From Escherichia coli (lineage in GTDB: Bacteria; Pseudomonadota; Gammaproteobacteria; Enterobacterales; Enterobacteriaceae): a stretch of 64,000 bases of DNA. Shown piece by piece: positions 14,821-54,941 of the stretch. The notes under the pieces are model-generated. The model searched no databases. It saw nothing but the letters and a program-made list of their open reading frames with translations, and was not told the DNA's origin. The first letter of the stretch is position 1; every line of letters begins with the position of its first letter. The stretch lies in assembly GCF_965641715.1 (NCBI RefSeq), contig NZ_OZ282453.1, one strand, 5' to 3'. The position numbers were made by a program, and so were the translations under genes.

Positions 14821-14838
14821 ATGGTGCCGATAATAGGA
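14821..14838. repeat. attL core: 18 bp at thrW 3' end, repeated at 3194..3211
   Basis: exact 18-mer match. Confidence 0.6.
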
Positions 14839-36480: not shown

Positions 36481-36539
36481 CGTGAACAGGATTACCATTT
36501 TCAAAATTACAATATTATTTGCAGTAATTATGTTATTAA

Positions 36540-37052: not shown

Positions 37053-37118
37053 GTTATAGAATAATGATGCTATAAATCATCATTAATGTTCAATTATTTA
37101 ATCACACAATTTAAAAAA

Positions 37119-37622
37119 TCATTGACCAATGTGAATTGGCAATGTACCACTCAAGTTAAAATCACTGAATATTTTATCAATTTCTCTTGCAGTTTCTATA
37201 TATTTAACCTCTTTCGTACTTGCATTATAAATAGCCCAAGCCTCGGGATGGGATGTTCCACCAAACCTTACAAAAAAACTTGATTTCATATTATTATATA
37301 AATTAACATCAGGAAAAGGATCTTCTCCAAAATTAGTAGTATTGAATAATGAAAGTTCGTATCGCTTAGAAAATTCTGTTGGTAGGATAGCTTCACTGCC
37401 ATCAATAGCATTCATCCAGAGTTTGTTACCATTATATTCCAACAATAATCTCTGTTTTGCATGTGTCTTATCTCGTTCTTTAACGACAGCGAATACCTTT
37501 TTAACAACTTGCTGTGCGGATGGTCCTATTGTATTACCAAAAGCTGGCAACCCGATTTTGCCATAAACACTCTCCTGAATGAAATAAATATCCGTTTTAT
37601 CGGCCTCGACAATATCTACCAT
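37119..37622 (-). CDS. hypothetical protein, unknown function (possible orphan immunity protein)
   Basis: AT-rich 167-aa ORF between ISAs1 fragments. Confidence 0.35.
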   Translation of the reverse strand: MVDIVEADKTDIYFIQESVYGKIGLPAFGNTIGPSAQQVVKKVFAVVKERDKTHAKQRLLLEYNGNKLWMNAIDGSEAILPTEFSKRYELSLFNTTNFGEDPFPDVNLYNNMKSSFFVRFGGTSHPEAWAIYNASTKEVKYIETAREIDKIFSDFNLSGTLPIHIGQ

Positions 37623-37850
37623 TTATCCCTCCAAACAAGACCTGACTCCAGGACAAGAGCATAGTGTGTAGTAAACACTTCATGCTCTTGCCCTGACCAT
37701 TGAAATAACAACTTTCGTTTGTTTACTGTACGCTGTCTAAATAGCTGCGTGGAATAAAGTTGCACTTTTTATCATCCCTTGCAGAACAAGATTACGAAAG
37801 CCCGCCCCCGCAAGGACTGACGCGAGGTAGTCTCTGTCCGCAGCTGCTTT

Positions 37851-38430
37851 TCACATCTTACATCTTGCCCCTGCCTTGATTATCTTATCTTTCGTTAAAA
37901 TATTAATAGCGATCTTCCGTATCCCTGAAAATAATTCTGCTGCATTTCCTCTTCTTATTTTGAAGTCGTCTTTATTCATTACCACGTCCAGATGCCAGTG
38001 CAATTTATTCTCCACTTGCCAGTGATTTCGGTTCGCTGTGGCGAACTTCTCTGCGGTTAAATCAGCAGAAATGCTATAATATCTGACCGTCATTTCGGGA
38101 TTTTTCTTTTGTTCTGCTATTATTGAGCGAAATGAGACTGCCATGCATAATTTCTTCAGCCCTTTCCATTCAAACGTAAAATCAATAAATTCATCAGAGA
38201 CATGCAAACAATATGAAGACGGGTTTTAATGACATAAATTGCTCCCTTGTGACGACTTTTATCATAAGAGTGCCGGAGCGTTTTTCCATCAATTGTAATG
38301 ACGTCTTTATCATCTGAAGAATGACAGTCACGCATCCAGTTAATAAAGCACTCATGAAATTTTTCAGGACTGATACAGGATACAACTCTGGCAATGATAT
38401 CGTGAACAGGAATACCATTTTCAAAATCAC
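37851..38430 (-). mobile_element. ISAs1-family (H-repeat) transposase remnant, copy A (internally deleted/frameshifted)
   Basis: C-terminal part intact (ORF 37851..38207); N-terminal part ([23 protein letters not shown]) in another frame at 38230-38430. Confidence 0.7.
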
Positions 38431-38772
38431 CATATCACTTCAAAAAATCGGGATGTGTTTCCCCAAATCCTCTATATCTTCCCAGCATTATGCACCAGAA
38501 ATAACGGCGCAAATAGTTAACAGATAGAATATCTGGCAATTTATGTTCCACTTTCCAGGCTTGCCTGTAATCGGGGATAATAGAAATATGTTCCATCAAT
38601 TTTTTAAGTTCCATTTTGCCCCCCTTAATTATGCAATGAGTATTTGATCATGTATAAGCAATGAAAAACAGCTTTAGGTAATAAGGAACACCTCAATTAT
38701 TGAACATAAAATGCGAATTATTTAGTACAAAAAAAGCAGCATTACGTGATTTTTCCCTGGGAGTACAGTGTG

Positions 38773-38871: not shown

Positions 38872-40965
38872 TTAACCTCGGCTCACCGTTTTCGATTCCA
38901 TCCAATAAATGACCCGGTTGGATGTGGGCTGATCGCCAACAACTTTGCCATCTGCAGAGATTAGCTTCAGCTCTTTATTAGCCTCATCACCGAAGTAAAT
39001 CATGCGGTAGCGAAAATAACCGCCCCAGGGTTCGCGTCCACCCAGCGAACTTTGCATAAACCAGGCGCGGGAGTCGTGAACCTGGTCATCATAGAGAGCC
39101 AGTAATTCAGCGCAGGGCTGAGTACGCGTTCCCGTTCCCAGTGAATCAATAAAAAATTGTGGATAGAGTCCGTCTCCCATAGCCTTAATTTGCTGATATT
39201 CTTTTGCTTCATCATCGCCATTAATCAGATACACCGGATATTTAGGAATGACATCCACAAGAATCTGAATGGCTTTCTCCATGACGCTGCCGTTAATATC
39301 GCGCGTCCATCCTTTATAATCGCTCTGAAATTCTCGGGCTGCCTCTCGCAACTGATACTGAGCATTGGTTGGGTCAAGGATAGGAATGCCCTGATTACTT
39401 TCATCAAGTGTGCCATTCCCTTTCTGCTTGTTCGCCCGCTCTTTTTCAATATTTTCCATTTGTTCTTTACGCGCTTTAGCCTCTTTATCAAGTCCATCTT
39501 TATCCAGCTGTGGCGCCTTAATATAAAAAGGTTGCACAAGAAGGCTGTTATTCGCATAGCGACCGATACGCCAGGCGGTGATCCAGCCGATCTGATCGCT
39601 AATTGCGCTTTCAAGAACCTGGGCAAGTTGATAGGAGTGATAATCTTCCCTCGTATCAATCATTTCTTCTGTACCCTGCAAGGTGGTGTTCAGCAGCGTT
39701 TGTCGCCAGATGTTGAAGCGTTTTGTTAATGAATTAGCAATCGTAAATTCCTTTACGCTAGAAGGACTCATAATTCGCAGAGGCGACACACCTTTTATTA
39801 ATGGAGTAACAAATTTAGAATAAACAGCAAGTGGTGCTCCTGAATCAAATGCAGCAAGATACATATCATGCAGTGCTATCTGAGAAAGAATTTCGCCTGA
39901 GTCACCACAGGACTTCCCCTGATCGCGAACGGGATAGCCACCACCGACATCAGAGTGCATCCCCGGATAGATAATTTCCTCTGCATTTAAAGGATAATTT
40001 CCGTCTGGACGACGGATTGAATCCAGCGGAAAGCACAGCCGCTGCTCATGCGCGGCAACGAAGTGGCGGCAGCATTTAATCAGGCCGGGAAACTGCCTCT
40101 CATCAGGGAGTTGCTGAGTACTATCGGCCCATCCCATATGACCGGCAGCGCCCGGTAAAACATGCGCCGCCCCCACAGAAGCTACGGTATCCAGCAGCCC
40201 CAAAAACTCAATACTGACAGCTAACCCGGCCAGCATCACCTGTTGCTCCTGCGGGCAAGCTAACTGAGTCAACCAGTTAACAAAAGTTCGTGCTTCCGCT
40301 GCGCCACGGGAAAATCCGTAGATAAACAGCTTTACGTTTAGCAGGCGCGGACTGGCTTGCTCTAACAGTCCCTGTAATTTTTCCAGGTAGGGGTTAATCA
40401 CATTGCGACGATTCACTTCACCAGTCATAGGCCAGGGAGCGCGCATAAGAGGAATGTGCTCTTTTGCCACATTATCATCCAGTCGCTTATGGGAAGGGTC
40501 AATGGAATAGCTCAGGGCATCCACGAGGCGTAATAATGCCCAATTAATTCGATCTTCACCACCAGTAGCGAACTCCAGCCCGCTGTTGCTGTAATCCATT
40601 TCACCTATCTTGGGAAATGGTGTGCCTACACCCGGTATATAGTAGTTAAAATATCCCTGTTCTTCTGCGTTCTGATAGGTCGTATGAAACAGTTTGGCAA
40701 TATTGATTGGGTGTCCAGGAGTGTCATTATATTCATTATTATTTGTACCATCAAAAAACAGACTAATATGCAGACTTTGATTACACGTAAAGCCAATTCT
40801 AAATCCAGCCTGTTTACTACAGTTGGTTTTGTGCTCTTCTGTTTTATTGATTTGTTTTAGGTAGTTCGCGTTTACCTGCGCTTCAGATAATATTAATCGC
40901 CCATTTTCAGGAAACGCTGGGGGGGCATAACACGGAAAAGCCAGACCACTTATTTCGCTGGACAT
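38872..40965 (-). CDS. tle1: T6SS phospholipase effector, Tle1 family
   Basis: 697 aa; lipase motif GFSRGA (GxSxG); sits after adaptor gene in vgrG island. Confidence 0.7.
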   Translation of the reverse strand: MSSEISGLAFPCYAPPAFPENGRLILSEAQVNANYLKQINKTEEHKTNCSKQAGFRIGFTCNQSLHISLFFDGTNNNEYNDTPGHPINIAKLFHTTYQNAEEQGYFNYYIPGVGTPFPKIGEMDYSNSGLEFATGGEDRINWALLRLVDALSYSIDPSHKRLDDNVAKEHIPLMRAPWPMTGEVNRRNVINPYLEKLQGLLEQASPRLLNVKLFIYGFSRGAAEARTFVNWLTQLACPQEQQVMLAGLAVSIEFLGLLDTVASVGAAHVLPGAAGHMGWADSTQQLPDERQFPGLIKCCRHFVAAHEQRLCFPLDSIRRPDGNYPLNAEEIIYPGMHSDVGGGYPVRDQGKSCGDSGEILSQIALHDMYLAAFDSGAPLAVYSKFVTPLIKGVSPLRIMSPSSVKEFTIANSLTKRFNIWRQTLLNTTLQGTEEMIDTREDYHSYQLAQVLESAISDQIGWITAWRIGRYANNSLLVQPFYIKAPQLDKDGLDKEAKARKEQMENIEKERANKQKGNGTLDESNQGIPILDPTNAQYQLREAAREFQSDYKGWTRDINGSVMEKAIQILVDVIPKYPVYLINGDDEAKEYQQIKAMGDGLYPQFFIDSLGTGTRTQPCAELLALYDDQVHDSRAWFMQSSLGGREPWGGYFRYRMIYFGDEANKELKLISADGKVVGDQPTSNRVIYWMESKTVSRG

Positions 40966-41504
40966 GTTGCTGGTTCCTTCATCTCGCGGGGTTCTTTGAT
41001 GGGATAATTCGGTGTGCCATACTTCTGGCAGACGGTTGTCACTTTAATCTGATTACACGTTAGAAAATGAACGGTCAGGCCACAAAGCTCAGCATCGTAT
41101 TCCGGGATATCAACAATTGCGGTATGTTGAATGTAACTTTCTTTTAGTTTTTTCTCCCAGGCCTGATATTTATCCCAATCCTTATAGAGTGGTGGCGGAG
41201 GTACTGTATTTGGGGTAATTTCCCATTCAACCTGGGCTTTTAATCCAGAATGCCACTTATCTGGCAGCATAACGCAACAATATCCTCCACCGTCTCCGAA
41301 TGGACCAATATTTGGTCCGCCGTAACCATTGATGTGTATATAATTTATATCCTTATCCGTATGATTTATCCCATTAATATCCACAGCAGTGTAATCACCG
41401 CTATTTTTTGCCATTGAACAGCCTGATACTGCAAATAAAATCATTAGAGAATAACATTTGAAAATCGTTCTCATACTGATACTTTTCCTTATTTTGCTGG
41501 ACAT
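40950..41504 (-). CDS. lipoprotein, candidate Tle1 immunity protein
   Basis: lipobox LFAVSGC; overlaps tle1 start by 16 nt. Confidence 0.4.
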   Translation of the reverse strand: MSSKIRKSISMRTIFKCYSLMILFAVSGCSMAKNSGDYTAVDINGINHTDKDINYIHINGYGGPNIGPFGDGGGYCCVMLPDKWHSGLKAQVEWEITPNTVPPPPLYKDWDKYQAWEKKLKESYIQHTAIVDIPEYDAELCGLTVHFLTCNQIKVTTVCQKYGTPNYPIKEPREMKEPATCPAK

Positions 41505-41817
41505 GTTGCTGGTTCTTTTACTTTGAGAGATTTTAATTGATGGGTATTGTTTCTACGACAATAAAGTTTTGACAAAGAAGCAAATAAAATGCATATCTTT
41601 CGATTGTCACACATTGGAATATCGACAGAGCATTGATGATATTACGCAAAATATATTGCAGCCAAGTGAACTGACATTACGATCGAACACAAATGCAACA
41701 TGATGGATACTACCATTACATGTCGAGCTTGATTTTCCGTTTATTTCACGATTATCTCTTGATATTAACAGCTACGGACTTTTAAACAGATAAATCTCCC
41801 CGTACATCACCACAATA

Positions 41818-42588
41818 TTATCCTTCGAAGTCCCGCAAAGCTCCGAAATATTTCGCGTCATTGGCTCTGAAAGCAATATCAAGACAGTGGGCAAAATAGC
41901 TTTCCTGACTGAGTTCACTGACTGCTTTCTCCTTCATCAGGACTTCAGCGTCGCAGATACAGCCCATCAATCCCACCTGTACATCATCCACCCGATTCAT
42001 CTCCGGGTTGTCAGTAAGCCTGCGTTCTGGTGAAAAACTTCCTGATTTCCAGTTAATCTCACCATCACGGTCTAACCAGCTCCAGAACAACGCAATATCA
42101 GTAAATGTCGCCTGCTGCTCGTTAGTCAAAACATGTGTGAACAGTAAAGGGAACACCCGATTATCATAGTAACGCAGCAATCCGGTCTGTTCTTCCCACT
42201 GAACCTGTGACAATACCTGAAGATGCCGCCCCAGCAGGTCGAATGTAAGAGGGGATATCAACAAAGTAAGACGCGGCGTATCAGCAAATGACGCCATCAG
42301 TTGTGCCAGAAATTTGCGATGGCTACTGAGCGCAAAGTACAGGCGTAACACTACAGGGGAATACTCCATCGTCTCAGCTTCAGGCGTTCCTTCAAACAGG
42401 GCATACCAGTGAATGGCTGGCCACAGATGAAGTATCTCATTTTGCAAAGGTTGGTCGGTTCCAGCCTGGTCAACAAGCACATCTATGTAATCCAAACCAG
42501 CGGCAGAACAGAATGATTCAGCCTGCTTCAGCCAGATAATATATTTGTCTTGATCGGTAGCGCGTGGCGATACTGTTATCATCGTCAT
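41818..42588 (-). CDS. T6SS effector adaptor/chaperone (DUF4123-like)
   Basis: 256 aa; positioned between vgrG remnant and effector. Confidence 0.45.
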   Translation of the reverse strand: MTMITVSPRATDQDKYIIWLKQAESFCSAAGLDYIDVLVDQAGTDQPLQNEILHLWPAIHWYALFEGTPEAETMEYSPVVLRLYFALSSHRKFLAQLMASFADTPRLTLLISPLTFDLLGRHLQVLSQVQWEEQTGLLRYYDNRVFPLLFTHVLTNEQQATFTDIALFWSWLDRDGEINWKSGSFSPERRLTDNPEMNRVDDVQVGLMGCICDAEVLMKEKAVSELSQESYFAHCLDIAFRANDAKYFGALRDFEG

Positions 42589-42594
42589 TCTCCC

Positions 42595-43010
42595 TTATCC
42601 ACGAGGCGCAAAAGCGGCGGCGGCTTCCTGCGCCCTTTTCAGGCACTCCTTACACACCGATTTTTCTGGCGCTTCCTCACCCTCATCGTTGTTATCATTC
42701 TGATCGGACGATGCATTACTATCATTTTGCTCAGCCGCTAAACTTTTATCATCTGCCAGCGCTTTCAGAACCGCCGGTTGCAGCGTCGGCACCGGCGTTC
42801 CCGGACTACCGCCGCTATTGAGATTGATTTTCGGCCCGACGATGTCCACGCCCCCTGAATGGATGACCACAAACGAACCGCCCACCTTCAGGCTTATCCG
42901 GCTGCTGCTCTCCAGCACCACATCGCCCTCCACCTTTAACCACGCCACCGCAGTCAATGGCATCACCGGTTCTGGCGGTAGGTTTATCGTCGATAAAGGC
43001 GGAAGAGGTG
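42595..43010 (-). pseudogene. Chimeric PAAR 3' fragment fused to vgrG 3' fragment (recombination scar)
   Basis: PAAR motif SSAFIDDKPTARTGDAIDCGGVV in one frame, then vgrG C-terminus VLESSSRISLKVGGSFVVIHSGGVDIVGPKINLN in another; junction ~42940. Confidence 0.65.
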
Positions 43011-43082
43011 TTTCCGGCTCTTAAGAAATATTTACGCACATGCACCAGCATTACAGAAAATAAAACCTGCGATACATTTTAA

Positions 43083-43859
43083 TCAATAAGGTTGCTTTAC
43101 CAAGCTTCCATCGATATTGATGGAAAATTCATTAGACCTAATATGAACAGAATGTTGCTCATCATCTTTATCTAATATTTGATTAACAAAAAAAAACGTA
43201 TTTTTATCAAATTCATAATTATCACATCCCTCTCCACTAAATGATATAGCTCTAAAATCATATTCATTACATGAGTATCTTTTCATCAAAATAGAGAGGA
43301 ATGTTTCATTAATTGATTTTAATACAAACCATTTTCTCCTAACAAGTTTGTAGTTTAATGTTTTTATATGATAATTATTTAAACTGGGGAGAAATGAATG
43401 CATATCATTCAATTTTACATCAAAAGATATTTTTTTACCTGCCGTAATTTCCACCCATCGGCTCAAATTCAAATCAAGCTCAAAGGGACAAAAGCCTCCT
43501 AGATAGTCTAAGCTAATATTTCCTGATGTAATCAAGAATTCGTCATCACACAAAGCATCAAATACATCTCCATTTCCTTTTTGGAAGTTCTTTGGATAAT
43601 ATATTCTGGGGAGAAAATACGATTTAGTACTACTGTTATAAAAAGTTATAGTAGCTAAAATATTTTCAGCATGTGGCTTAACCACCAATTTAACAACAAC
43701 ATCATTTGTTAATTCATTACTTATATTTTCCTCTGGCGCTAAATTATGGCTAAGATAAATAATTGGTTTCCCATTGTCACTTCTTCGTTCAAAACCGAAT
43801 CTGTATTTTTTTACAAAAAGATTCTCATTATCTATTGCAATTGCAATAGATAATGGCAA
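43083..43859 (-). CDS. hypothetical protein, candidate immunity for upstream HExxH effector
   Basis: AT-rich 258-aa ORF directly downstream of putative effector; no signal peptide seen. Confidence 0.35.
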   Translation of the reverse strand: MPLSIAIAIDNENLFVKKYRFGFERRSDNGKPIIYLSHNLAPEENISNELTNDVVVKLVVKPHAENILATITFYNSSTKSYFLPRIYYPKNFQKGNGDVFDALCDDEFLITSGNISLDYLGGFCPFELDLNLSRWVEITAGKKISFDVKLNDMHSFLPSLNNYHIKTLNYKLVRRKWFVLKSINETFLSILMKRYSCNEYDFRAISFSGEGCDNYEFDKNTFFFVNQILDKDDEQHSVHIRSNEFSINIDGSLVKQPY

Positions 43860-43924
43860 AAAACAAAGAAAAAAAAACCATCAGTACAACATAATTTAGA
43901 TTATAGAAAGCCAACCTCTTCATC

Positions 43925-44728
43925 TTATTTCCCCGTCAACTCATCAAAACATTTTTCTATCTCTTTTATTTTATCCTCTACTTTTTTTGCTAACATATTC
44001 TCATCTTGAGCTTCAATATCTTCATCATTTAATTTTATATAAAAATATCTTTCAACATTATATGCATTCTCAAATAACTGATCTTTACGCAATGTAACCA
44101 GATCATTAGCCACTGAAACATGTTTCTCATAGCTAACTTCATCCTTATTACTTGTTGCGAACTTATTAATACCCGTATAATCCTGAGTCCACATACCACC
44201 TTTTTGATTGTCACCCCAATACCAAAATATATGGGACATTTCATGGCAAAGTGTACTTACATGAGAGTCTCTACCTGTAACCGACTGTTTTATACCATGT
44301 CTGTATTCAAAATGCGCTCCGATATTTACAATGTAAGGAGGATCAAGATGTGGACTAATAAAAGCAGCAAATTCATTGCAGTTCGTATAATCTTTATAGC
44401 TTTCGATCGTCAAACCATTTGCAATCGTCATTATTCGTCTGATGCCATCCATTATGAATAGTCTCGCTTGCATTCGTTTCCCAGTATCTTCCCCAACTTT
44501 TCTGATTTTTATAATGTCCTCGCCTTTAAGGCCAAAAACTTTAATAAAATCTCGTTGTTGTTCCCCCTCCCATGACATAATATCATCTGCTCTTTTCAAT
44601 AAAACCATTTTCTGTGCTTTACAAGCCTTACTCATCATTATTTTAAATTTATTTGTAATTTTTTGCGGTACTACACATACTTGCGACTCGGGTTGTGAAG
44701 TCCCACTAGTATTATTATTCCCTGCCAT
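43925..44728 (-). CDS. putative zincin-like (HExxH) metallopeptidase toxin, T6SS effector candidate
   Basis: HEMSH motif (LCHEMSHIFWYWG); start MAGNNNTSG overlaps vgrG stop; AT-rich; ORF track extension to 45103 is spurious. Confidence 0.45.
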   Translation of the reverse strand: MAGNNNTSGTSQPESQVCVVPQKITNKFKIMMSKACKAQKMVLLKRADDIMSWEGEQQRDFIKVFGLKGEDIIKIRKVGEDTGKRMQARLFIMDGIRRIMTIANGLTIESYKDYTNCNEFAAFISPHLDPPYIVNIGAHFEYRHGIKQSVTGRDSHVSTLCHEMSHIFWYWGDNQKGGMWTQDYTGINKFATSNKDEVSYEKHVSVANDLVTLRKDQLFENAYNVERYFYIKLNDEDIEAQDENMLAKKVEDKIKEIEKCFDELTGK

Positions 44729-47114
44729 AATGCCCCTCCGGCTCAATATAAAAAGCATCCGAAAATAACAATTGGACTTTAATTTCCTGTGCTGTATCTG
44801 TATAAAATATTTCTGTATATCCCTCTCTGTCTGTTTCACCACGCGTCTGTGTGCCATCCTCAAAAAAGGCAATATACTGCGTCTCTGAATACGGTATCCC
44901 GTCATCGTCCGTAAAATGGAACTGGAGGGTATATTTTTCAGGATCATCTTCATCGTCACCGCCATCACCTCCTCCGTCACTCCCTGCGGGATTGCCACTA
45001 TCCTCTCCGGAGTCATCACTGCCATCATCACTGCTCTCATCCTCCGGAGCCTCCAGCACCGCCGGCTGCATCGTCCCCACCGGTGTCCCCGCACTGCCCC
45101 CACCGTTCAGGTTTATCTTCGGCCCGGCAATATCCACTCCGCCCGGCTGAATGACGATAAACGAGCCACCCACCTTCAGGCTTATCCGGCTGCTGCTCTC
45201 CAGCACGATATCCCCGTCCACTTTTATCCCCAGCGCGCCACTCACCTTCTCCGCCAGGTCCCCCTTCACCTCCAGGCTGTGCTTCCCCTCCACCAGGCTG
45301 ATGTGGTTACCCGTCGTCTTATGCTCCTGCTTCCCTTTCACCGTCACCCTACGGTCATTTCTGACGTACAGACCGTCATCGTGACTCACGCTCACCGTCC
45401 GGTCATTTGTCACCTTCAGCGTCTGGTCGTTACGTACCGTTATGCTCCGGTCGTTCGCCACCGTGATACTCTGGTCGTGGCCTCCTTCTTTTCTGGTCCC
45501 GACCTCAACCGTCTGCCCCTTCACCACCGTTATCTTCTGGTCGTTACCAATGGTCTCCGTATGGTCATGTTTCACATCCGTTGTCCGGTCGTTGAGCACC
45601 TCCGTATCCATGTTCTTCTGCGCATGGATATACACCTGCTCATTACTGGTGGCGTCCTCAAAGCGCAACTCGTTAAATCCGCTTCCTTTATAGGTCTTCG
45701 ACCGTATCGTCATCTGCGTCTTCGTCCCCGGCAGGCTCCCCGGCGAACGGTTGTCCTCATGGTACGTCCGGCCCATGACCAGCGGCTGGTCCGGGTCTCC
45801 GTTCAGGAAGTCAACAATCACCTCCTGACCCACCCGCGGTATCGCCAGGTTACCAAACCCCGGCCCCGCCCACGCCTGTGATACCCGCACCCAGCATGAA
45901 CTCGCCTCCGTCATCCCGTGATAACGGTCCCAGTGGAACTTCACCCGTACCCGGCCATGTTCGTCGCAGAATATCTCCTCACCCTTCGGCCCGGTGACAA
46001 TGGCGCTCTGCGGCCCGTCCACCTTCGGTTTGCTTTGCAGCCGTGGACGCCACGTCCGGTCCGCCGGTATCACCTCTAACTGATTTCCCAGCGTGGTTCC
46101 TCTCCCCTGGCTGCCGTGCAGCGCCTGCGGCTGGCTTCCTGACAGTATGCTCTGTACCACCTGCCATTCACGGTTCAGCATCTTCTGCGGATGCCCCGTC
46201 AGCGTAAACCGCGTTCCCGGCCACAGCCTCGGCGAATTACTCTGCCCTGTGGCCTTTTCCGCATCACTGCGCAGGCTCTCCATCTGGTACAGCGTGAAAT
46301 CCTTGCCGTGCTGCTCATCCTTGAACCTTCCCGGATAATCAAATATCTCGTACTGCGCCAGCTGTCCGTTCAGGTTCTCACCCTGCTGCTCATACATCCC
46401 CGGCCAGTCCGGCACCTTAAACGTGTAATCCTGGCTCTGCACCGACGACGGGCGGACATGCGCCTCATAACGGAACATACTGAGACACTCCGTCTCCGCT
46501 CCTGCCGATGTGTCCGGGTTAAACGGAAGCTCTCCCGCCTGTGACAGCCCCGCCACATCGTCGCACAGCGTCAGCTTCTGCTCCGGACTGTCCGCCGCAA
46601 ACCGCTCAAAGAAGAAAATTCCTTCTTCCGCCCACAGCCGAGCCAGAAACGCCAGGTCGCTCTCCCCGTACTGGACACAGAACTCCCGCGCCGGATGGTC
46701 TTCATAAAACAGCGGAGTCCACTCCGTGACGCCGTTCTCGTTCAGTAACGTGGCCGATATCGTCCGGATATCCTGCTGCTGAAAAATACGAAAGTTCTGC
46801 CGCAGCCCGCACCGCCATAACGGCGGCTCAATACGCAGGTGATAACGCATCTGCCAGCCGTTGTTCTCCTGCATGCCAAAGCCCGCCACCACGCCGGTGA
46901 CATAACGCTGCGCCACCGCGCCCTGCCAGATGGCCAGCGTCGCCTTCTTCTCCAGCAGCATCTCCGCCGTCTGCATAAAAGAGTCGCTGGCAACATCCAC
47001 ACTCATCACAAACGGATAAGACTGGTTCTGGATTAACCTGAAATTCACCACTGCAAAGGTGTCCGGCTCCTGGCCGTCAATCTCCAGCGTAAAGCGCAGA
47101 CCGTTTAAGGACAT
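44715..47114 (-). CDS. vgrG: T6SS spike protein VgrG with acidic linker and C-terminal extension domain
   Basis: 799 aa; repeated octapeptide region; Asp/Gly-rich linker then ~70-aa C-terminal domain. Confidence 0.9.
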   Translation of the reverse strand: MSLNGLRFTLEIDGQEPDTFAVVNFRLIQNQSYPFVMSVDVASDSFMQTAEMLLEKKATLAIWQGAVAQRYVTGVVAGFGMQENNGWQMRYHLRIEPPLWRCGLRQNFRIFQQQDIRTISATLLNENGVTEWTPLFYEDHPAREFCVQYGESDLAFLARLWAEEGIFFFERFAADSPEQKLTLCDDVAGLSQAGELPFNPDTSAGAETECLSMFRYEAHVRPSSVQSQDYTFKVPDWPGMYEQQGENLNGQLAQYEIFDYPGRFKDEQHGKDFTLYQMESLRSDAEKATGQSNSPRLWPGTRFTLTGHPQKMLNREWQVVQSILSGSQPQALHGSQGRGTTLGNQLEVIPADRTWRPRLQSKPKVDGPQSAIVTGPKGEEIFCDEHGRVRVKFHWDRYHGMTEASSCWVRVSQAWAGPGFGNLAIPRVGQEVIVDFLNGDPDQPLVMGRTYHEDNRSPGSLPGTKTQMTIRSKTYKGSGFNELRFEDATSNEQVYIHAQKNMDTEVLNDRTTDVKHDHTETIGNDQKITVVKGQTVEVGTRKEGGHDQSITVANDRSITVRNDQTLKVTNDRTVSVSHDDGLYVRNDRRVTVKGKQEHKTTGNHISLVEGKHSLEVKGDLAEKVSGALGIKVDGDIVLESSSRISLKVGGSFIVIQPGGVDIAGPKINLNGGGSAGTPVGTMQPAVLEAPEDESSDDGSDDSGEDSGNPAGSDGGGDGGDDEDDPEKYTLQFHFTDDDGIPYSETQYIAFFEDGTQTRGETDREGYTEIFYTDTAQEIKVQLLFSDAFYIEPEGHYGRE
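45650..47114. repeat. ~1.5 kb direct repeat, vgrG 5' region copy 1
   Basis: near-identical to 51535..52995 (1 mismatch in the ~130 bp compared by eye); boundaries approximate. Confidence 0.7.
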
Positions 47115-47132
47115 AAATACCTCTCAGACATA

Positions 47133-47417
47133 TCAGCCTATATTTACCGTACCGCCACCAATGACCACACCACCACAGTCGATGGCATCACCGGTTCTGG
47201 CGGCGGGCAGGCCGTCAATAAAGACGGTTGAAGAACCTCTGGCGATTTTACGGGGATGAGGTGGATGCTTCGGTTTAGCATGCGGCGTCAGCGGATCTCC
47301 CTGGCGAGCAGCAGGTAATCCATCAATAAATACCGTGGATGAAGCCGCAATGATGACTGTCTCACGGTAGCCATCATGCTGAGTACCTTTGTCGTTTAAT
47401 CTGGCAGCTAAAGGCAT
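47133..47417 (-). CDS. PAAR-domain protein
   Basis: two PAAR motifs (STVFIDGLPAARQGD / STVFIDGLPAARTGDAIDCGG). Confidence 0.8.
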   Translation of the reverse strand: MPLAARLNDKGTQHDGYRETVIIAASSTVFIDGLPAARQGDPLTPHAKPKHPPHPRKIARGSSTVFIDGLPAARTGDAIDCGGVVIGGGTVNIG

Positions 47418-47527
47418 AATTCCTCCTGTTCAGAATATCAGCGACAAAAAATTTAAAAAACGGTAAGGTGCTTAACTCAGCAATAATCACCTTACCGGAC
47501 ATCCTGATTTGTAGCCCAACAGGTTAA

Positions 47528-48538
47528 TCAAGTAACAGGGATAAACTGACCATCAATCAGCGAAAATACCGGAGCGTAATACCCCATACGCTCTTCACCA
47601 CTTTCATCTGTAAAACGGTAAGTCAGTGGGGAATACGTTGGCATTGATTTATTATATAATTGCACCATACGCCCATTATTCATAACCCGGACGGCATAAT
47701 CGTTCCACCTGATAGGCAGTATTTTGGCTTTTCCACCCTCAAGGTTATCTTTCGGAAAGTGGGAGAGTAATATGTCATCCTCAGAGTCACCGGTTGTGGC
47801 TGACCATGCCTTCAGCGCCTCTGTGTTATATAACTTAAGACGTGCTCTGTCCCCGCTGTTAATAATTGTTGCCATTTCGGTATAGGTGGCTTTTAACTTC
47901 CGTAGCTGCTCGTCGCTTCCGGTATAGGGGGTTGCCCGCGTCCAGGCCCATTCAGGAAGCCCCGTCACCGTGACTTTTTGTGTAAACTGATACACCTTCA
48001 TCCCTTTCGGAAAATAGGTTTCATCAAAATAATCTGGATCTATAAATCCTGGCTCCGCCTGCTCTGCCAGGATCTCTTTCCTGATAACGGGATGCACGCT
48101 GTCTGACCGGGCTTCAGGTATGCCCTGCTGGTTGATGGTCACTTTTATCGAAGAAAGCAGGGTTTCTTCCTGTTTAATAAAACGAACCAAATCCAGGCTG
48201 CACCCTGCTTTTTGGAAAAAACGCCCCCGTTCTTCCGTACTGGCAGGCTTGTCAGAAAACCATCCTAACGCCCCGATTTCCAGACTGATTTCATTTTCTC
48301 CATTCGCCATCAGCATCATGGCATTGGTGCTGGATATGGCCCCGGTGGAATCACCATTCTCTCGCCATGCGTTCATTCGGTTACTGAAGCCGAGGACACC
48401 GTTGGTTTTGATGGCACAATATGATTCCTCAATATTAAACTTACTGCGGATTTTTTGTGGATTTTCACCCGAGTACAATCCTGCTCCCATAATACCTCCT
48501 GACAGTAAAATAACCGATATTAAATGTTTTACCTTCAT
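47528..48538 (-). CDS. secreted protein of unknown function, candidate periplasmic immunity protein
   Basis: N-terminal signal peptide; follows putative effector. Confidence 0.4.
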   Translation of the reverse strand: MKVKHLISVILLSGGIMGAGLYSGENPQKIRSKFNIEESYCAIKTNGVLGFSNRMNAWRENGDSTGAISSTNAMMLMANGENEISLEIGALGWFSDKPASTEERGRFFQKAGCSLDLVRFIKQEETLLSSIKVTINQQGIPEARSDSVHPVIRKEILAEQAEPGFIDPDYFDETYFPKGMKVYQFTQKVTVTGLPEWAWTRATPYTGSDEQLRKLKATYTEMATIINSGDRARLKLYNTEALKAWSATTGDSEDDILLSHFPKDNLEGGKAKILPIRWNDYAVRVMNNGRMVQLYNKSMPTYSPLTYRFTDESGEERMGYYAPVFSLIDGQFIPVT

Positions 48539-48604
48539 AATTATTTTCTCTTAAAAGGAAAAGACTCTCATTATATTGAGTGATTTTAATTGCTGTAATA
48601 TCAC

Positions 48605-50176
48605 TTAATAATCCATGCCTATTGTCCACGTTGTCACTGGCTTCGGCGGTATTACTTTTTTCTCTACCGTGCGTTCTTTACCGTATAAATTAACCCGCAA
48701 TGGTGAATCTTTTATCTCCATAGGATCACATAACTGCCACTCAACGGTATCTTTCTTCTCGGGTTTCTCACTCTTTTCTTTCCCCTTTCCCTTCCCTTTA
48801 CTTTCACCATAAGATACATCCGCCTTAAATTCGAACTTTCCTTTAATGCCGTCATGAAATAATGCCAGGTCCAGTCCGTCATCATGTGAATCGAATCCAA
48901 AGCCAGCTTTCGCCTCTATAGAAGCGGTCGCTTCTGCGGTCAGTTGTACAACAAAAACATTCGCCTCAAACGTCGCACTCACCACACCTTTTAAACCGAG
49001 CTTGATGTTACTTTCCTTTACATTAAACTCCCATTTTTTATCCTTTTCAGCGTATACTGCGCCAAGATCAAGATTAATCTCCGCTGAAATCTCGATATAG
49101 CATTCAACACTGGCTCCGTTTTTACGGAGATATTCACGACATCTGTTGACCAATGACTCGACTTTACAGTATGCACATATAAATGAAATAATATCGAATC
49201 TGAACGACGCTTCAAAAAATGGGGCACCAAACAAACCATAAAAATGACAGGGGCCATCCTGGATATCGGTATATTGATAGGCATACGATATACCCAGTTT
49301 AACGGGTTCTATTTTTGCACTGAACAATGCATATTTGCGCGTACCATTATTATTGTCAGGATCTGGCGCAAAATATTTATTGACATTCTTGACCAGAGAG
49401 TCAATTCTTCCTATCTGTTCCAGTTGCTTTGTTTGTCGAAGTTTTTTTATCTCTTTTTCATATTCACTTGTGTGTTCAACATTAGCTATTTTTACGCCAA
49501 AATCGACAGTCAGGGAAGTCTTGTTTATCCACTCAAACTCAGCAGTGGTATTTGTCCAGCCGCTACGGAGTTTATTTTTATCCCTGGGCTTGGTGTTCTC
49601 CATTGCGTCCCTGGCTTTTATTCTTTCGTCACGCCGCTCTTTTACTGTTCGCGTCTGTTTTGATGACGAAATCTCATAGCTGAACCCTGTAGTAAACCTA
49701 ATTTCCATTGTAGGATAAACATCAATTTCAACATAATTGCCACATTCGTAACAACTGTCAATTCTGACTGAATAATGGGCAGGTTCATAATGATTCTTAA
49801 GTGGAGAGGATATTGCCCCCAAATAATCCCATGGTACGCGAAATGTACCCATAGCAATTATTTCACCTTCAGACAAGTTATCATCCAAAGTGACCTTATT
49901 AGGTATTCCGAAAGGTTGCAGTATCTTATGATTATTTTCTGATTCTTCCTCTAACCATGCCTCATGTGTTCCACTTTTATCGCACTGGTAGGTAATGGTA
50001 ATTATACCATCACATCCGGAACCATCATCCAGTAGCTTAAAACGCGCCACTCCTTCTTTTGACCAGAAATGTTTCTCGCCGGCCTCTGGAAAATCACTAA
50101 TAACATCAAAAATACATGGATCAGGTATGCCGCATTCCACACAGGGCTTTCCGGCTGTCGAAGATGGAGATGTCAT
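48605..50176 (-). CDS. large protein of unknown function, candidate T6SS effector
   Basis: 523 aa, follows DUF4123-like adaptor; Cys-rich N-terminus (CVECG..DPC), Lys/Gly-rich C-terminal tract; AT-rich. Confidence 0.4.
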   Translation of the reverse strand: MTSPSSTAGKPCVECGIPDPCIFDVISDFPEAGEKHFWSKEGVARFKLLDDGSGCDGIITITYQCDKSGTHEAWLEEESENNHKILQPFGIPNKVTLDDNLSEGEIIAMGTFRVPWDYLGAISSPLKNHYEPAHYSVRIDSCYECGNYVEIDVYPTMEIRFTTGFSYEISSSKQTRTVKERRDERIKARDAMENTKPRDKNKLRSGWTNTTAEFEWINKTSLTVDFGVKIANVEHTSEYEKEIKKLRQTKQLEQIGRIDSLVKNVNKYFAPDPDNNNGTRKYALFSAKIEPVKLGISYAYQYTDIQDGPCHFYGLFGAPFFEASFRFDIISFICAYCKVESLVNRCREYLRKNGASVECYIEISAEINLDLGAVYAEKDKKWEFNVKESNIKLGLKGVVSATFEANVFVVQLTAEATASIEAKAGFGFDSHDDGLDLALFHDGIKGKFEFKADVSYGESKGKGKGKEKSEKPEKKDTVEWQLCDPMEIKDSPLRVNLYGKERTVEKKVIPPKPVTTWTIGMDY

Positions 50177-50197
50177 ATAATCTATCCGTTTGTCTTT

Positions 50198-51040
50198 TTA
50201 TTGCGGGATAAATCCCAGTTCCTGTTGTGCAAGTTCATGTACCCGAATATGTCCCGGGTATGACTGATTGCTGAGTTGTTCATACCAGTCATCCGGAATA
50301 TATCTGAGATCGATTATATTTTTTTTCAGTAATATAAGCGTCATTGTTCTGACGGAACGATCATCTGCTATATTTAATGACTGGCAAAAAGAGAAATAAT
50401 CTTCTGCCAGAATTCGGGATGATTCAGCTTTTGATAAATCATCCCATCCGTCTTTATCTACATTTTCTTCGATAAATGCAGATAATATATCAAGATAATT
50501 ATCCCGTGCCTTTCGTTCCAGTTGGCTATATTGTCTGTAACTCAGCGTCAGTTGTGATGGCCGTTCTGCCCTTATATTCATAGTTTCTGCGGGACGGACG
50601 GAAGAAAAATTATCCTCACGACATTCTTCACCATAGCGGGTACTTAGCTGTCTGACGGGGCTGATAAAAGAAAGAAGCTGGCGGGGGGTCAGAACTTCCG
50701 CTAATACCCATATATTCCGGGGATCATAAAATCGCATGAGAACAGGTTTCTCCTGTTCGGGGATCATAACCCACAGATAACGTCTGAAGTGTTGCTGTAG
50801 CTCACGTATGGATGACTCAGAAGTAAGATATATTCCCCACGGCGACGCCTTATCACTCAGCCATGCTTCAACTTCCGGAACAACCTCCACGAGATAAGGG
50901 GCCAGCGCGACCAGATCCGGTTGTATGGGTTCTGCATACAGACAACAGTGCGGGGGATTCACCTCGTTCAGAAAATCCAGCAATCCTTCCTCCACAGCGC
51001 CATCCACAATGGCGTACTGCACGGGTGCCGTTTCCATCAC
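50198..51040 (-). CDS. T6SS effector adaptor/chaperone (DUF4123-like)
   Basis: N-terminal YAIVDGA; overlaps vgrG2 stop. Confidence 0.5.
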   Translation of the reverse strand: MMETAPVQYAIVDGAVEEGLLDFLNEVNPPHCCLYAEPIQPDLVALAPYLVEVVPEVEAWLSDKASPWGIYLTSESSIRELQQHFRRYLWVMIPEQEKPVLMRFYDPRNIWVLAEVLTPRQLLSFISPVRQLSTRYGEECREDNFSSVRPAETMNIRAERPSQLTLSYRQYSQLERKARDNYLDILSAFIEENVDKDGWDDLSKAESSRILAEDYFSFCQSLNIADDRSVRTMTLILLKKNIIDLRYIPDDWYEQLSNQSYPGHIRVHELAQQELGFIPQ

Positions 51041-52995
51041 TTATCCTCCTTCGGACAATGCGACACGAACATCGAACCACTTCCGGCTGCGGCTTTCAGG
51101 ATCACCGGGCGCATCGGCAGGATCACATCCCCCGGACTGCCCCCGCCGTTAAGATTGATTTTCGCGCCCTTAATATCCACGCCGCCGGAATGGATCACCA
51201 CAAATGAACCGCCCACCCGCAGACTGATTTTGCTGTCGCTCTGTAAAACAATATCGCCCTGTACGCTGATACCCAGCGCGCCGCTTATTTTCTGTGCCAG
51301 ATCGCCTTTCACCTCCAGTCCCTGATTGCCCTCTGTCAGGCTGACGTGGTCTTTGGTGGTTTTATGGTCCTGTTTACCTTCAACCGTCACTTTCCGGTCA
51401 TTTGCCACCACCAGGGATTCATCATGCCCGATGCTGACCGTCCGGTCATAGTTGACCCGCTTATCCTTGCTGTTCAGCACAACGACCTGCATATTTTTCT
51501 GTGCGTGCAGATAAATTTCTTCCTTGTCCGTGGCGTCCTCAAACCGCAGTTCGTTAAATCCGCTTCCTTTATAGGTCTTTGACCGTATCGTCATCTGCGT
51601 CTTCGTCCCCGGCAGACTCCCCGGCGAACGGTTGTCCTCATGGTATGTCCGGCCCATGATTATCGGCTGGTCCGGGTCTCCGTTCAGGAAGTCAACAATC
51701 ACCTCCTGACCCACCCGCGGTATCGCCAGGTTACCGAACCCCGGCCCCGCCCACGCCTGCGATACCCGCACCCAGCATGAACTCGCCTCCGTCATCCCGT
51801 GATAACGGTCCCAGTGGAACTTCACCCGTACCCGGCCATGTTCGTCGCAGAATATCTCCTCACCCTTCGGCCCGGTCACAATGGCACTCTGCGGCCCGTC
51901 CACCTTCGGTTTGCTTTGCAGCCGTGGACGCCACGTCCGGTCTGCCGGTATCACCTCTAACTGATTTCCCAGCGTGGTTCCCCTCCCCTGGCTGCCGTGC
52001 AGCGCCTGCGGCTGGCTTCCTGACAGTATGCTCTGTACCACCTGCCATTCACGGTTCAGCATCTTCTGCGGATGCCCCGTCAGCGTAAACCGCGTTCCCG
52101 GCCACAGCCTCGGCGAATTACTCTGCCCTGTGGCCTTTTCCGCATCACTGCGCAGGCTCTCCATCTGGTACAGCGTGAAATCCTTGCCGTGCTGCTCATC
52201 CTTGAACCTTCCCGGATAATCAAATATCTCATACTGCGCCAGCTGTCCGTTCAGGTTCTCACCCTGCTGCTCATACATCCCCGGCCAGTCCGGCACCTTA
52301 AACGTGTAATCCTGGCTCTGCACCGACGACGGGCGGACATACGCCTCATAACGGAACATACTGACACACTCTGTCTCCGCTCCTGCCGATGTGTCCGGGT
52401 TAAACGGAAGCTCTCCCGCCTGTGACAGCCCCGCCACATCGTCGCACAGCGTCAGCTTCTGCTCCGGACTGTCCGCCGCAAACCGCTCAAAGAAGAAAAT
52501 TCCCTCCTCCGCCCACAGCCGCGCCAGAAACGCCAGGTCCGACTCCCCGTACTGCACACAGAACTCCCGCGCCGGATGGTCCTCATAAAACAGCGGCGTC
52601 CACTCCGTGACGCCGTTCTCGTTCAGTAACGTGGCCGATATCGTCCGGATATCCTGCTGCTGGAAGATACGGAAGTTCTGCCGCAGCCCGCACCGCCATA
52701 ACGGCGGCTCAATACGCAGGTGATAACGCATCTGCCAGCCATTGTTCTCCTGCATACCAAAACCCGCCACCACGCCGGTGACATAACGCTGCGCCACCGC
52801 GCCCTGCCAGATGGTCAGCGTCGCCTTCTTCTCCAGCAGCATCTCCGCCGTCTGCATAAAAGAGTCGCTGGCAACATCCACACTCATCACAAACGGATAT
52901 GACTGGTTCTGGATTAACCTGAAATTCACCACTGCAAAGGTGTCCGGCTCCTGGCCGTCAATCTCCAGCGTAAAGCGCAGACCGTTTAAGGACAT
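51037..52995 (-). CDS. vgrG: T6SS spike protein VgrG (short form, no C-terminal extension)
   Basis: 652 aa; N-terminal region near-identical to the 799-aa vgrG. Confidence 0.9.
   Translation of the reverse strand: MSLNGLRFTLEIDGQEPDTFAVVNFRLIQNQSYPFVMSVDVASDSFMQTAEMLLEKKATLTIWQGAVAQRYVTGVVAGFGMQENNGWQMRYHLRIEPPLWRCGLRQNFRIFQQQDIRTISATLLNENGVTEWTPLFYEDHPAREFCVQYGESDLAFLARLWAEEGIFFFERFAADSPEQKLTLCDDVAGLSQAGELPFNPDTSAGAETECVSMFRYEAYVRPSSVQSQDYTFKVPDWPGMYEQQGENLNGQLAQYEIFDYPGRFKDEQHGKDFTLYQMESLRSDAEKATGQSNSPRLWPGTRFTLTGHPQKMLNREWQVVQSILSGSQPQALHGSQGRGTTLGNQLEVIPADRTWRPRLQSKPKVDGPQSAIVTGPKGEEIFCDEHGRVRVKFHWDRYHGMTEASSCWVRVSQAWAGPGFGNLAIPRVGQEVIVDFLNGDPDQPIIMGRTYHEDNRSPGSLPGTKTQMTIRSKTYKGSGFNELRFEDATDKEEIYLHAQKNMQVVVLNSKDKRVNYDRTVSIGHDESLVVANDRKVTVEGKQDHKTTKDHVSLTEGNQGLEVKGDLAQKISGALGISVQGDIVLQSDSKISLRVGGSFVVIHSGGVDIKGAKINLNGGGSPGDVILPMRPVILKAAAGSGSMFVSHCPKEDK
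51535..52995. repeat. ~1.5 kb direct repeat, vgrG 5' region copy 2
   Basis: near-identical to 45650..47114. Confidence 0.7.
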
Positions 52996-53169
52996 AATGA
53001 CCTCCCTGATTTATTCACGGACCAAATGATTCTCACCATGCAGCAAAGGGTGCCAGTGCAGCGTTACACTCATCTTTACATTTTCAGGTACGCTACCGCC
53101 CGGGTTTCCGGCATCCGCCATCTCCCTCATGAAAGCGTAACTCCTTACTGACACTCATTTTTTACACGT

Positions 53170-53204
53170 ACAAAAACAACATCCTGCACGAAGGCAGGAT
53201 GTTG
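53170..53204 (-). terminator. Rho-independent terminator downstream of hcp
   Basis: stem caacatcctgc/gcaggatgttg followed by UUUUUG on minus-strand transcript. Confidence 0.6.
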
Positions 53205-53215
53205 TTGACTCAGAT

Positions 53216-53734
53216 TTATGCTTCCAGCGGTGCACGCCAGTCATCGGCACCAGAAGTACCGGATTTGATGTGCTCCCACTCAACCTTACGGTATGCCAGT
53301 GATACTGCGAGCAATTGCGTAAACTCACGCTGTGCAGGGTCCTGGCAGTGCGGCATGTGCAGGTTCATGTCCACAATCGTCGCGTCAGTAAGACGTGTGG
53401 TGAAGTAGTGCTCCTGCTTGCCTTCAACTGAAGTACGCCACCAGTGCAGCTCCACTTTCGGCAGCATTTCACCGGAGGCCAGCGCGTTGTACAGCAGCGG
53501 AACGGCTTTGTTCAGCGCCACGGTGAAAATGAACGGTTTGTGCGCGCGCTGCCCGGAAGGTTGACCAGACTGTGGATCGGTTGGAACAGTAACGTTATGC
53601 AGAAACTCCTGCACCAGCATTTCATCTTCGTGTCCCTGCACGTAGATATTGCCGACAGAATCTGCGGTGAAAGCACCGGCAGTGATGTTCCCCTGGGTCT
53701 GACCTGTAATTGAAATGTAACATGGGGTTGGCAT
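53216..53734 (-). CDS. hcp: T6SS tube protein Hcp (TssD)
   Basis: 172 aa MPTPCYISITGQTQGNITAG; good RBS. Confidence 0.9.
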   Translation of the reverse strand: MPTPCYISITGQTQGNITAGAFTADSVGNIYVQGHEDEMLVQEFLHNVTVPTDPQSGQPSGQRAHKPFIFTVALNKAVPLLYNALASGEMLPKVELHWWRTSVEGKQEHYFTTRLTDATIVDMNLHMPHCQDPAQREFTQLLAVSLAYRKVEWEHIKSGTSGADDWRAPLEA

Positions 53735-54437
53735 TTATGAACTCCTTGTGAAATTATCAACTGCTGTTTTACGAACAACCCGTCGTTAATCCCCGACGGG
53801 TTAGAGTGTGATGCGGCTCACATCAGGAACCACACCCTTTTCTTTATTCGAGTTACAGGCACACGTAATTAGCACCTACTGAAAAACTCTTTTATGGTGT
53901 TTAAATATATTTTTAGTCAATTTCAGAACACGGTCACATAAGCTAAAAATATATCAACTTCAACAGCAGAATTATCCATAACGTATCTTCCCCCCCCATA
54001 AAAATCCACAGCCGCGTCAAAAACAAATTATTACGACACTTACTCCGCCATCGTTCCAGCACGCAATTAAGACATTCCTTAAAGGAATTTCTTATGATGT
54101 ATTGCCAGCAATTAATTAATTGATAAAACCATACATAAAACTTATTAATCAATTTAATAAATGCATATAAATCAATATATTATGGTATTTTATTAACCGT
54201 AAAATCATATTCATCAAGTCTATAAATACCAAAATTTATTTCACTATAATATATTAGCAAGGAAGAATACATCTCTTTCTAAAATATAAATAGTTCTTTT
54301 AATATTTTATTTCATGAGTAGAATACTGATCACAACAGAAGGAAGGTTACATTATCTAACTGCCACTGAAACGGTATCTTCGGTATTTTTATGCAGTACG
54401 AAAATGCTGTGCTCATGGCCTGAACGGGAACATTTTT

Positions 54438-54941
54438 ATGAGCAAAATGAACAACAATGGCGGCAGTGTCGCGCCGAAAGAAAGAATCAGCGTTCGGTAT
54501 ACACCAAAAGTTGATGGGGTGGCTGCTGATATCGAATTGCCGCTGAATTTATTGATCACCGGCAATCTGAAAGGGAAACCAGATAACACGCCGTTGGACG
54601 AGCGAACTGCCATTGCTATCAACCGCTATAACCTCAACGCAGTCATTTCAGAAGCTGACATTGAACGGGAGTTTGTTGTTCCGGCTGAACTCAGTGACGC
54701 TCCCAATGAGCAAATGTACGTCAACCTGAAAGTCAAATCTATGGATGACCTTTCTCCGGACCATATTGCCAGCCAGGTACCAGAAATAAAACGTCTTCTC
54801 GAATTGCGTGAAGCTCTGGTCGCACTTAAGTCTCCACTAGGCAATATTCCGGCCTTCCGCGCACAACTTCAGGCGCTACTGGAAAACGAAGACAGCCGCG
54901 AGCAGCTGATCCATGAACTGGGTATCGCCGTTCAGAAATAA
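54438..54941 (+). CDS. tssB: T6SS sheath small subunit TssB
   Basis: 167 aa, first gene of structural operon. Confidence 0.85.
   Translation: MSKMNNNGGSVAPKERISVRYTPKVDGVAADIELPLNLLITGNLKGKPDNTPLDERTAIAINRYNLNAVISEADIEREFVVPAELSDAPNEQMYVNLKVKSMDDLSPDHIASQVPEIKRLLELREALVALKSPLGNIPAFRAQLQALLENEDSREQLIHELGIAVQK

Follow-up and report, generated by a model that had tools for sequence, protein, structure and literature searches.

The window (i.e. the whole stretch of DNA analyzed, 64,000 nucleotides (nt) of Escherichia coli contig NZ_OZ282453.1, assembly GCF_965641715.1) carries a type VI secretion system (T6SS) island that includes two genes for VgrG spike proteins. The first after hcp is vgrG-B (51037..52995), encoding 652 amino acids (aa) with a short tail; the second is vgrG-A (44715..47114), encoding 799 aa with a longer beta-helix. 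Both lie on the minus strand, as do the features from hcp to Tle1 given below. In minus-strand order the island reads hcp, module B, a PAAR gene, module A and a displaced module C. In module B the VgrG-B tail is followed by a DUF4123 adaptor, a protein of 523 aa and a putative immunity protein of 336 aa. Module A consists of the VgrG-A tail and its C-terminal extension, together with an M35-like peptidase and a putative immunity gene, and in module C a remnant of the vgrG-C tail precedes Tla1, Tli and Tle1. The window is E. coli chromosome; dpaA, yafJ, lpcA, fadE, ivy and yafV (~29.9-36.3 kb) match E. coli at 98-99%, and the island sits on the yafV side, after these housekeeping genes.

Both vgrG open reading frames (ORFs) are intact and, as judged by sequence, are bona fide VgrG/TssI proteins. 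They score 598 (B) and 599.5 (A) bits against TIGR03361, for which the curated cut-off is 186, and have the same Pfam domains, i.e. Phage_GPD (the gp27-like hub) at residues 34-328 (E ~2e-75), Phage_base_V (the gp5 oligonucleotide/oligosaccharide-binding (OB) fold) at residues 385-451, and then Gp5_trimer_C (the beta-helix) from residue 468. The nearest solved structures are those of P. aeruginosa VgrG1 (4MTK and 4UHV, E ~4e-89). Both genes adjoin the T6SS core genes hcp, tssB, tssC, tssE, tssF, tssG, tagH and tssJ, and the E. coli homologue locus is annotated accordingly. The length of VgrG-B equals that of its homologues in CFT073 and in draft assemblies. Past its helix VgrG-A continues into an acidic linker and then a C-terminal extension of ~100 aa. 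Seven 24-nt periodic units within vgrG-A, at 45346-45595, correspond to gp5-type beta-helix octapeptide repeats.

The 5′ parts of the two genes form a direct repeat. BLASTN self-comparison of the window aligns 45649-47123 with 51530-53004 over 1475 bp with 38 mismatches, no gaps and 97.42% identity; the copies are in the same orientation and are 5881 bp apart, start to start. A separate repeat finder, which lists no more than 300 nt, picked out this pair as well. A match of this length is far beyond chance. An earlier note on this DNA had placed the two copies at 45650-47114 and 51535-52995, some 5.9 kb apart, and these positions are correct to a few bases. The identity of the repeat is high, as the note had proposed, but the note's estimate of about one difference per 130 bp (~99%) was too high, the real average being one per 39 bp. 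Pairwise alignment of the two genes thus gives an identity that is not substantially below the estimate made by eye. The copies do share perfectly identical blocks of 248, 131, 116 and 109 bp.

Both copies begin 9 nt 5′ of the ATG (at 52995 for vgrG-B and 47114 for vgrG-A, minus strand) and finish at nt 1466 of the gene, in codon 489. Copy 1 (51530..53004) is therefore the 9-nt leader plus vgrG-B codons 1-489, encoding the gp27-like and gp5 OB-fold core, and copy 2 (45649..47123) is the leader plus the same codons of vgrG-A. The sequences 5′ of the repeat are unrelated, being the 3′ end of the PAAR gene in one case and the hcp-vgrG spacer in the other. We refer to the cores (nt 1-1466) of the vgrG-A and vgrG-B genes of the window as winA and winB.

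At codon 489, about 20 residues into the beta-helix, the homology breaks off abruptly. Beyond this point the alignment is reduced to patches of no more than 72% identity with an offset of 162 nt, and therefore the beta-helix of VgrG-A is 54 aa longer than that of VgrG-B. Within the core winA and winB differ by 28 synonymous and 5 non-synonymous codon differences. By the Nei-Gojobori method the core has a synonymous divergence (dS) of 0.092 and a non-synonymous divergence (dN) of 0.007 (dN/dS ~0.08), against a dS of 1.67 and a dN of 0.36 in the tails. The tails are followed by distinct gene sets, so the earlier view that the 3′ ends and downstream cargo differ is borne out. It might be that the two genes are old paralogues that look alike only through strong purifying selection, with no exchange between them and a repeat that is irrelevant to cassette turnover. 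The low dN/dS of the core, with so few amino acid differences, would be expected in that case, and the mismatches of the window pair are not spaced so as to leave a strikingly long conversion tract, no identical block exceeding 248 bp. Yet the synonymous divergence of the core is low too, and protein-level selection alone would not account for a roughly twenty-fold jump in synonymous divergence at a single codon.

The locus was compared with 5,426 complete genomes and with NCBI draft assemblies, and 20 loci were inspected (labelled L with a number). A single vgrG of the A type is present in five complete genomes of E. coli (L002 and L017-L020; strains 23CRST031, JX21CE8, A30, 32F4 and FDAARGOS_944). 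They are collinear with the window on both sides, with alignments that stop at 47123 and restart at 51530 on one vgrG core, and hence correspond to the window minus exactly 5881 bp (i.e. hcp, vgrG-A, M35 and so on). The indel is bounded by the repeat in all five. Insertion or deletion of a cassette at the repeat, which had been predicted from the window sequence, is thus found among other strains. That the ends of the indel coincide with the repeat is a further argument against the paralogues having been preserved by selection alone.

Other arrangements occur in the same place. Many genomes (L001 was inspected) have hcp and module B alone, followed by an ISAs1 element that truncates the PAAR gene at window-equivalent 47383. 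The cassette swap that had also been anticipated is seen in L005, L007 and L013, which retain hcp, module B and PAAR and have in the second slot a vgrG of 662 aa with a different tail. Its cargo is DUF6484, DUF2169, Tox-PAAR-like and Tox-GHH2, and homology to the window stops at 45508; L014 has the same cargo with no vgrG called there. The only vgrG of L016 is an intact vgrG-C (743 aa), accompanied by Tla1, Tli and Tle1; the remnant in the window corresponds to the final 347 nt of this gene. L015 is an array with two further truncated vgrG genes. The pairing of tail and cargo is constant in 20 of the 20 loci: M35 accompanies the A tail, DUF4123 and the 523-aa family accompany B, Tla1/Tli/Tle1 accompany C, and DUF6484/DUF2169/GHH2 accompany D.

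The tandem of modules B and A in the main cluster is found in draft assemblies, of which L006 and L012 match the window at 100% and L008-L011 at 99.96-99.99%. We considered whether the window might be misassembled, with a single vgrG resolved as two or with two loci joined, given that repeats of this size break short-read assemblies. The contigs of L011 and L012 do end inside the vgrG-B copy of the repeat (window-equivalent 52467 and 51808), and are a direct example of assembly fragmentation at this sequence; fragmentation at multiple vgrG genes has also been reported (PMC10711316), in agreement with the assembly trouble foreseen in the earlier note. Against an artefact in the window, four independent assemblies span both copies, L006 (20.3 kb) at 100% and L008, L009 and L010 at 99.96-99.98%. 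Moreover, the 38 fixed differences tell the copies apart, and the finished genome of CFT073 has the same architecture. We therefore regard an artefact as extremely improbable.

At ~89% identity, 149 complete genomes (CFT073, Nissle 1917, ATCC 25922 and 146 others) also have the junction that links the immunity gene of module B, PAAR and the core of vgrG-A. The one inspected, CFT073 (L004, NC_004431 1714.9-1727.7 kb), has it in an orphan island between yddH and yncG, with the order PAAR, vgrG-B, DUF4123, two hypothetical genes, PAAR, vgrG-A and M35 (~89-90% identity); there the direct repeat also takes in the PAAR gene and is ~1.79 kb long. Because a tandem of the CFT073 type exists at this divergence and the junction occurs in so many genomes, the two-cassette architecture is old and real. 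This bears on the possibility that one vgrG was recently duplicated in tandem in this lineage, one copy then gaining a foreign 3′ end and cargo. The cores of the window are indeed closer to each other (97.4%) than to cores of the same type elsewhere (92-96.5%), as a recent duplication would predict. However, the age of the B-PAAR-A-M35 order speaks against it, the tails are saturated at synonymous sites, and a perfect duplicate of the same tail is absent from closely related genomes.

When near-identical genomes are compared, their differences gather in the vgrG cores, which are mosaic. The unique segments of L005 match the window at 98.5-100% (523-aa gene 100%, 336-aa region 99.9%, B tail 99.8%, hcp 99.9%), but its two cores at only 96.5% and 94.6%. 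With L002 the flanks are 99.85-100% identical and vgrG-A 98.0%, the differences being clustered in nt 240-1119 and nt 1560-1766. The second of these patches (19 differences from the otherwise 99.9% identical L002, at ~45349-45555 of the window) lies in the same helix region of vgrG-A as the 24-nt periodic units. Between the window and CFT073 the dS of the cores is 0.193 and 0.172 for pairs of the same type and 0.188 and 0.208 for pairs of different type, whereas winA and winB, at 0.092, are nearer to one another. Since same-type and cross-type values are alike, the core keeps no memory of the tail to which it is attached.

At the 38 sites that distinguish winA from winB, other genomes show many different alternating patterns. 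Tests of recombination were made on 13 cores with 119 informative sites. The four-gamete test fails for 52% of the pairs of informative sites, with a Hudson-Kaplan minimum number of recombination events (Rm) of 41. In a permutation test similar to the pairwise homoplasy index (PHI), neighbouring sites are more compatible than permuted ones, and none of 2000 permutations reached the observed value. Had the two genes simply been conserved by purifying selection, the absence of a tail-type signal in cores across genomes and the widespread four-gamete failures would be hard to explain.

Two breakpoints were mapped inside the core. The L002 core has 0 differences from winB and 18 from winA over nt 236-800, and 2 differences from winA and 13 from winB over nt 1001-1466. 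A comparison of winB with the L005 B core gives 42 differing sites over nt 1-800, only 5 over nt 1001-1466 and almost none in the cargo. Both exchanges (nt ~800-1000) fall in or beside the 248-bp block that is identical between the window copies. Compared three ways, the site patterns can be explained by one exchange at nt 800-1000, whichever direction is assumed. With breakpoints of this kind in L002 and winB, we consider it very improbable that selection alone has kept the paralogues alike. Recent duplication seems very unlikely on the same data, as the first 800 nt of winB match the core of the single-vgrG genomes and the remainder matches the B module of L005, which fits the recombination of two pre-existing loci better. 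The chimeric nature of winB tips the balance slightly towards module B having been inserted in a locus with a single vgrG-A, with the qualification that winA nt 236-800 fits neither putative parent.

In module B the DUF4123 adaptor gene (50198..51040; Pfam DUF4123 E = 8e-26, 91 bits against a cut-off of 25.8) overlaps the stop codon of vgrG-B, and is placed directly after vgrG-B and before the gene for the 523-aa protein, as expected of adaptor-dependent cargo. The 523-aa protein (48605..50176) is a putative cargo effector by its position after vgrG and DUF4123. It has 37 homologue clusters in 5.8 billion proteins, and all those with a named source are Enterobacterales proteins annotated as 'hypothetical protein'. 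An AlphaFold2 model made with 20 homologues (predicted local distance difference test (pLDDT) 68, predicted template modelling score (pTM) 0.58) is beta-rich with long hairpins. Assigned by position, it is a candidate for an uncharacterised family of T6SS effectors. The adjacent ORF (47528..48538) encodes the 336-aa putative immunity protein, named for its position and sequence; it has a hydrophobic N-terminus and is called at 320 aa in other assemblies. Between the modules lies the PAAR spike-tip gene (47133..47417), identified by NF033420 (157 bits against a cut-off of 124) and by Pfam PAAR_motif.

The putative cargo of VgrG-A is a 267-aa M35-like metallopeptidase (43925..44728), the gene for which overlaps the vgrG-A stop. 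It contains an HExxH motif (HEMSH), and RefSeq names its homologues in L002 and L017-L020 'M35 family metalloendopeptidase' or 'peptidase M35'. We treat it as M35-like rather than as a proven member of M35. The putative immunity gene of module A (43083..43924) is frameshifted at ~43877, where a tract of nine T residues (T9) has one T more than the T8 tract of L009 and L010, which are otherwise 99.96-99.98% identical to the window. The T8 version encodes 279 aa with a signal-like N-terminus, and the T9 version of the window leaves a 258-aa ORF that starts with TTG. L006, which is 100% identical to the window, also has T9. The T9 tract may mark a genuine pseudogene, be phase-variable or stem from a sequencing error common to both.

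Module C begins with the orphan tail of vgrG-C (42595..42941), the last ~347 nt of the gene, which is 97% identical to the 3′ end of the intact vgrG of L016; the RefSeq label for its homologue is VgrG 'missing N-terminus'. A 76-nt fragment of the 3′ end of a PAAR gene (42927..43002), with 79-82% identity to PAAR genes of the window, L004 and L015, is joined to this tail with an overlap of ~12-15 nt, and is the scar of a displaced PAAR-vgrG-C cassette. The junction of the PAAR fragment with the vgrG-C tail shows that the arrival of module A displaced and truncated an earlier PAAR-vgrG-C cassette. Consequently the window contains no full-length cognate VgrG for the Tla1/Tli/Tle1 module (38872-42588). 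The module contains the Tla1 (DUF4123) adaptor (41818..42588; NF053803, 220 bits against a cut-off of 200), a DUF3304 (Tli1a-like) immunity lipoprotein (40950..41504; Pfam DUF3304 E = 2.9e-28, RefSeq name tli1a) and a phospholipase effector of the Tle1 family (38872..40965; Pfam T6SS_Tle1-like_C E = 1e-58 together with the catalytic domain). The names Tla1 and Tli1a are taken from work on Tle1 of P. aeruginosa (PMC13133936).

Taking these observations together, the repeats are very probably the core halves (residues 1-489) of two functional VgrG paralogues, and recombination within them adds, deletes and replaces cassettes. The fit of the core to the Hcp tube, the baseplate and the PAAR tip would keep it under purifying selection, while we infer that the tail past codon 489 would choose the cargo that is loaded. 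Such a rule was reportedly established for other VgrGs by Bondage and co-workers in 2016. It is also supported by the Vibrio cholerae work (PMC5361080). The core, being common to all vgrG alleles of the species, would then serve as a homology arm for RecA-type recombination. RecA needs roughly 25-30 bp of perfect identity, and the identical stretches of the core are well above this. Crossovers and conversion tracts in the core could add, delete or replace whole tail-plus-cargo cassettes, and at the same time would keep the cores of different cassettes alike. Unequal crossover between the two copies would remove the B tail, the B cargo and the only PAAR gene, and crossing over with incoming DNA would bring in new cassettes or exchange existing ones.

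A number of points weigh against this interpretation. In the window pair the spacing of the 38 mismatches (longest identical block 248 bp) is by itself not significant, as estimated here; the case for recombination rests on the comparisons between genomes. Over nt 236-800 winA is close neither to L002 nor to the core in the second slot of L005, and a patch of seven single-nucleotide polymorphisms at nt 801-980 is private to L002; the history is not one clean event. The partners in the exchanges may be either intragenomic paralogues or imported alleles, and the genomes with a single vgrG-A may be either deletion products or recipients that module B entered. The main-cluster B-A tandem occurs in 0 of the 5,426 complete genomes, and because of this its population frequency is low or poorly sampled.

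Other such points concern the cargo. The 523-aa protein has no sequence match in Pfam, NCBIfam or the PDB, and a Foldseek search of its model against the PDB gave nothing below E = 0.06. The 336-aa protein matches no family in Pfam or NCBIfam, nor any PDB entry or known fold, and its immunity function is putative. The M35-like protein scores 18.9 bits against Pfam Aspzincin_M35, under the cut-off of 30 for membership. Module A may not be fully functional, because its putative immunity gene is frameshifted in the lineage of the window. More generally, we infer the toxin and immunity roles, the specification of cargo by the tail, the use of both spikes, and the direction and rate of events, and the secretion or toxicity of either spike or of any cargo is putative.

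The interpretation can be extended, tentatively and with rather less than even expectation, to the species as a whole. The core may be more than passively conserved, in that frequent gene conversion may keep it interchangeable among all vgrG loci of E. coli, whether these lie in main clusters or in orphan islands like that of CFT073 between yddH and yncG. In that case it would be an integrase-free docking sequence for a species-wide pool of tail-plus-cargo cassettes, with module B carrying a 523-aa toxin from a family that has no recognisable fold.

The principle has parallels in known systems. Orphan toxin arrays of Rhs and CdiA have a conserved 5′ recombination substrate and variable 3′ toxin ends, with displaced 3′ fragments and immunity genes downstream. 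They differ from the window locus in that the proteins are unrelated and the toxin is fused to the conserved protein, whereas the cargo in the window is encoded separately.

The closest comparison is with V. cholerae, in which sequential displacement has been described at the vgrG-3 and aux clusters (Kirchberger et al. 2017, PMC5361080). There too a conserved 5′ vgrG is joined to alternative 3′ ends that travel with an adaptor, an effector and an immunity gene particular to each; homologous recombination in the conserved part lets new modules in, and older modules and partial vgrG 3′ fragments are shifted downstream and kept (PMC5361080). The order of B, A and C remnant in the window, the orphan vgrG-C tail and the breakpoints in the core are the features of sequential displacement. 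There are differences, however. The window keeps two full-length vgrG genes in tandem, where Vibrio has one vgrG with orphan immunity genes; in the CFT073-type island PAAR is part of the repeated unit; and the displaced module in the window retains the effector Tle1 and not an immunity gene alone.

Islands of vgrG genes with diverse effector modules are known in E. coli (PMC6730261, citing Ma et al. 2018). They resemble the window in having several vgrG genes, each with different putative effectors that include DUF4123-associated and Tle1 (DUF2235) cargo, and in occurring both in the main cluster and as orphan islands, of which the CFT073 tandem is one. A sequence type 131 (ST131) locus with three vgrG genes has also been reported, in a study that noted the fragmentation of assemblies by multiple vgrG genes (PMC10711316). 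The porcine extraintestinal pathogenic E. coli (ExPEC) strain PCN033 likewise has two highly similar vgrG copies in one genome, and there the near-identical paralogues hinder allelic exchange by homologous recombination (PMC6363058). In PCN033, by contrast, the two proteins are alike over their full length except for one residue, and the genes downstream are identical too, while the genes of the window share the first 489 codons only. No paper was found on a main-cluster B-A tandem on the yafV side or on recombination in the E. coli vgrG core, the module list of Ma et al. 2018 not having been compared.

The locus is thus ordinary, well-understood T6SS architecture, and its principle is already known. 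New here are the example of a B-A tandem in the main cluster, the mapped breakpoints, and an indication of a candidate effector family that is uncharacterised. The locus illustrates how contact-dependent weapons are diversified in E. coli: with a spike core in common, toxin cassettes can stack, vanish or swap by ordinary homologous recombination, altering which strains kill and which resist. In practical terms the 1.5-kb repeat is known to break or collapse assemblies of short reads, and is a trap for mutagenesis of vgrG genes by allelic exchange.

The remaining features of the island are as follows. The gene for the tube protein, hcp (53216..53734; Pfam T6SS_HCP E = 1.5e-32), is divergent from tssB, and the core genes tssB, C, E, F and G, tagH and tssJ run on the plus strand from 54438. 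The divergent hcp/tssB pair and the presence of TagH/FHA agree with T6SS-2, as compared by description. A scan for promoters and terminators over 42000-54600 found no excess over shuffled sequence (26 against 20 ± 3.9, and 14 against 10.5 ± 3.2, respectively). Between yafV and Tle1, at 36320-38760, there are remnants of ISAs1-family transposases, and in the same interval are two repeats of 195 bp (36321-36515 and 38241-38435) that are 81.5% identical. In other strains the island is interrupted at various points by ISAs1, IS1, IS100, IS903B and IS3. Outside the island, and unrelated to the vgrG repeat, the window has an Rfam match to naRNA4, a small RNA family associated with repetitive extragenic palindromes, at 31479-31556 between yafJ and lpcA, and a tRNA-Thr(CGU) gene at 14822-14897.

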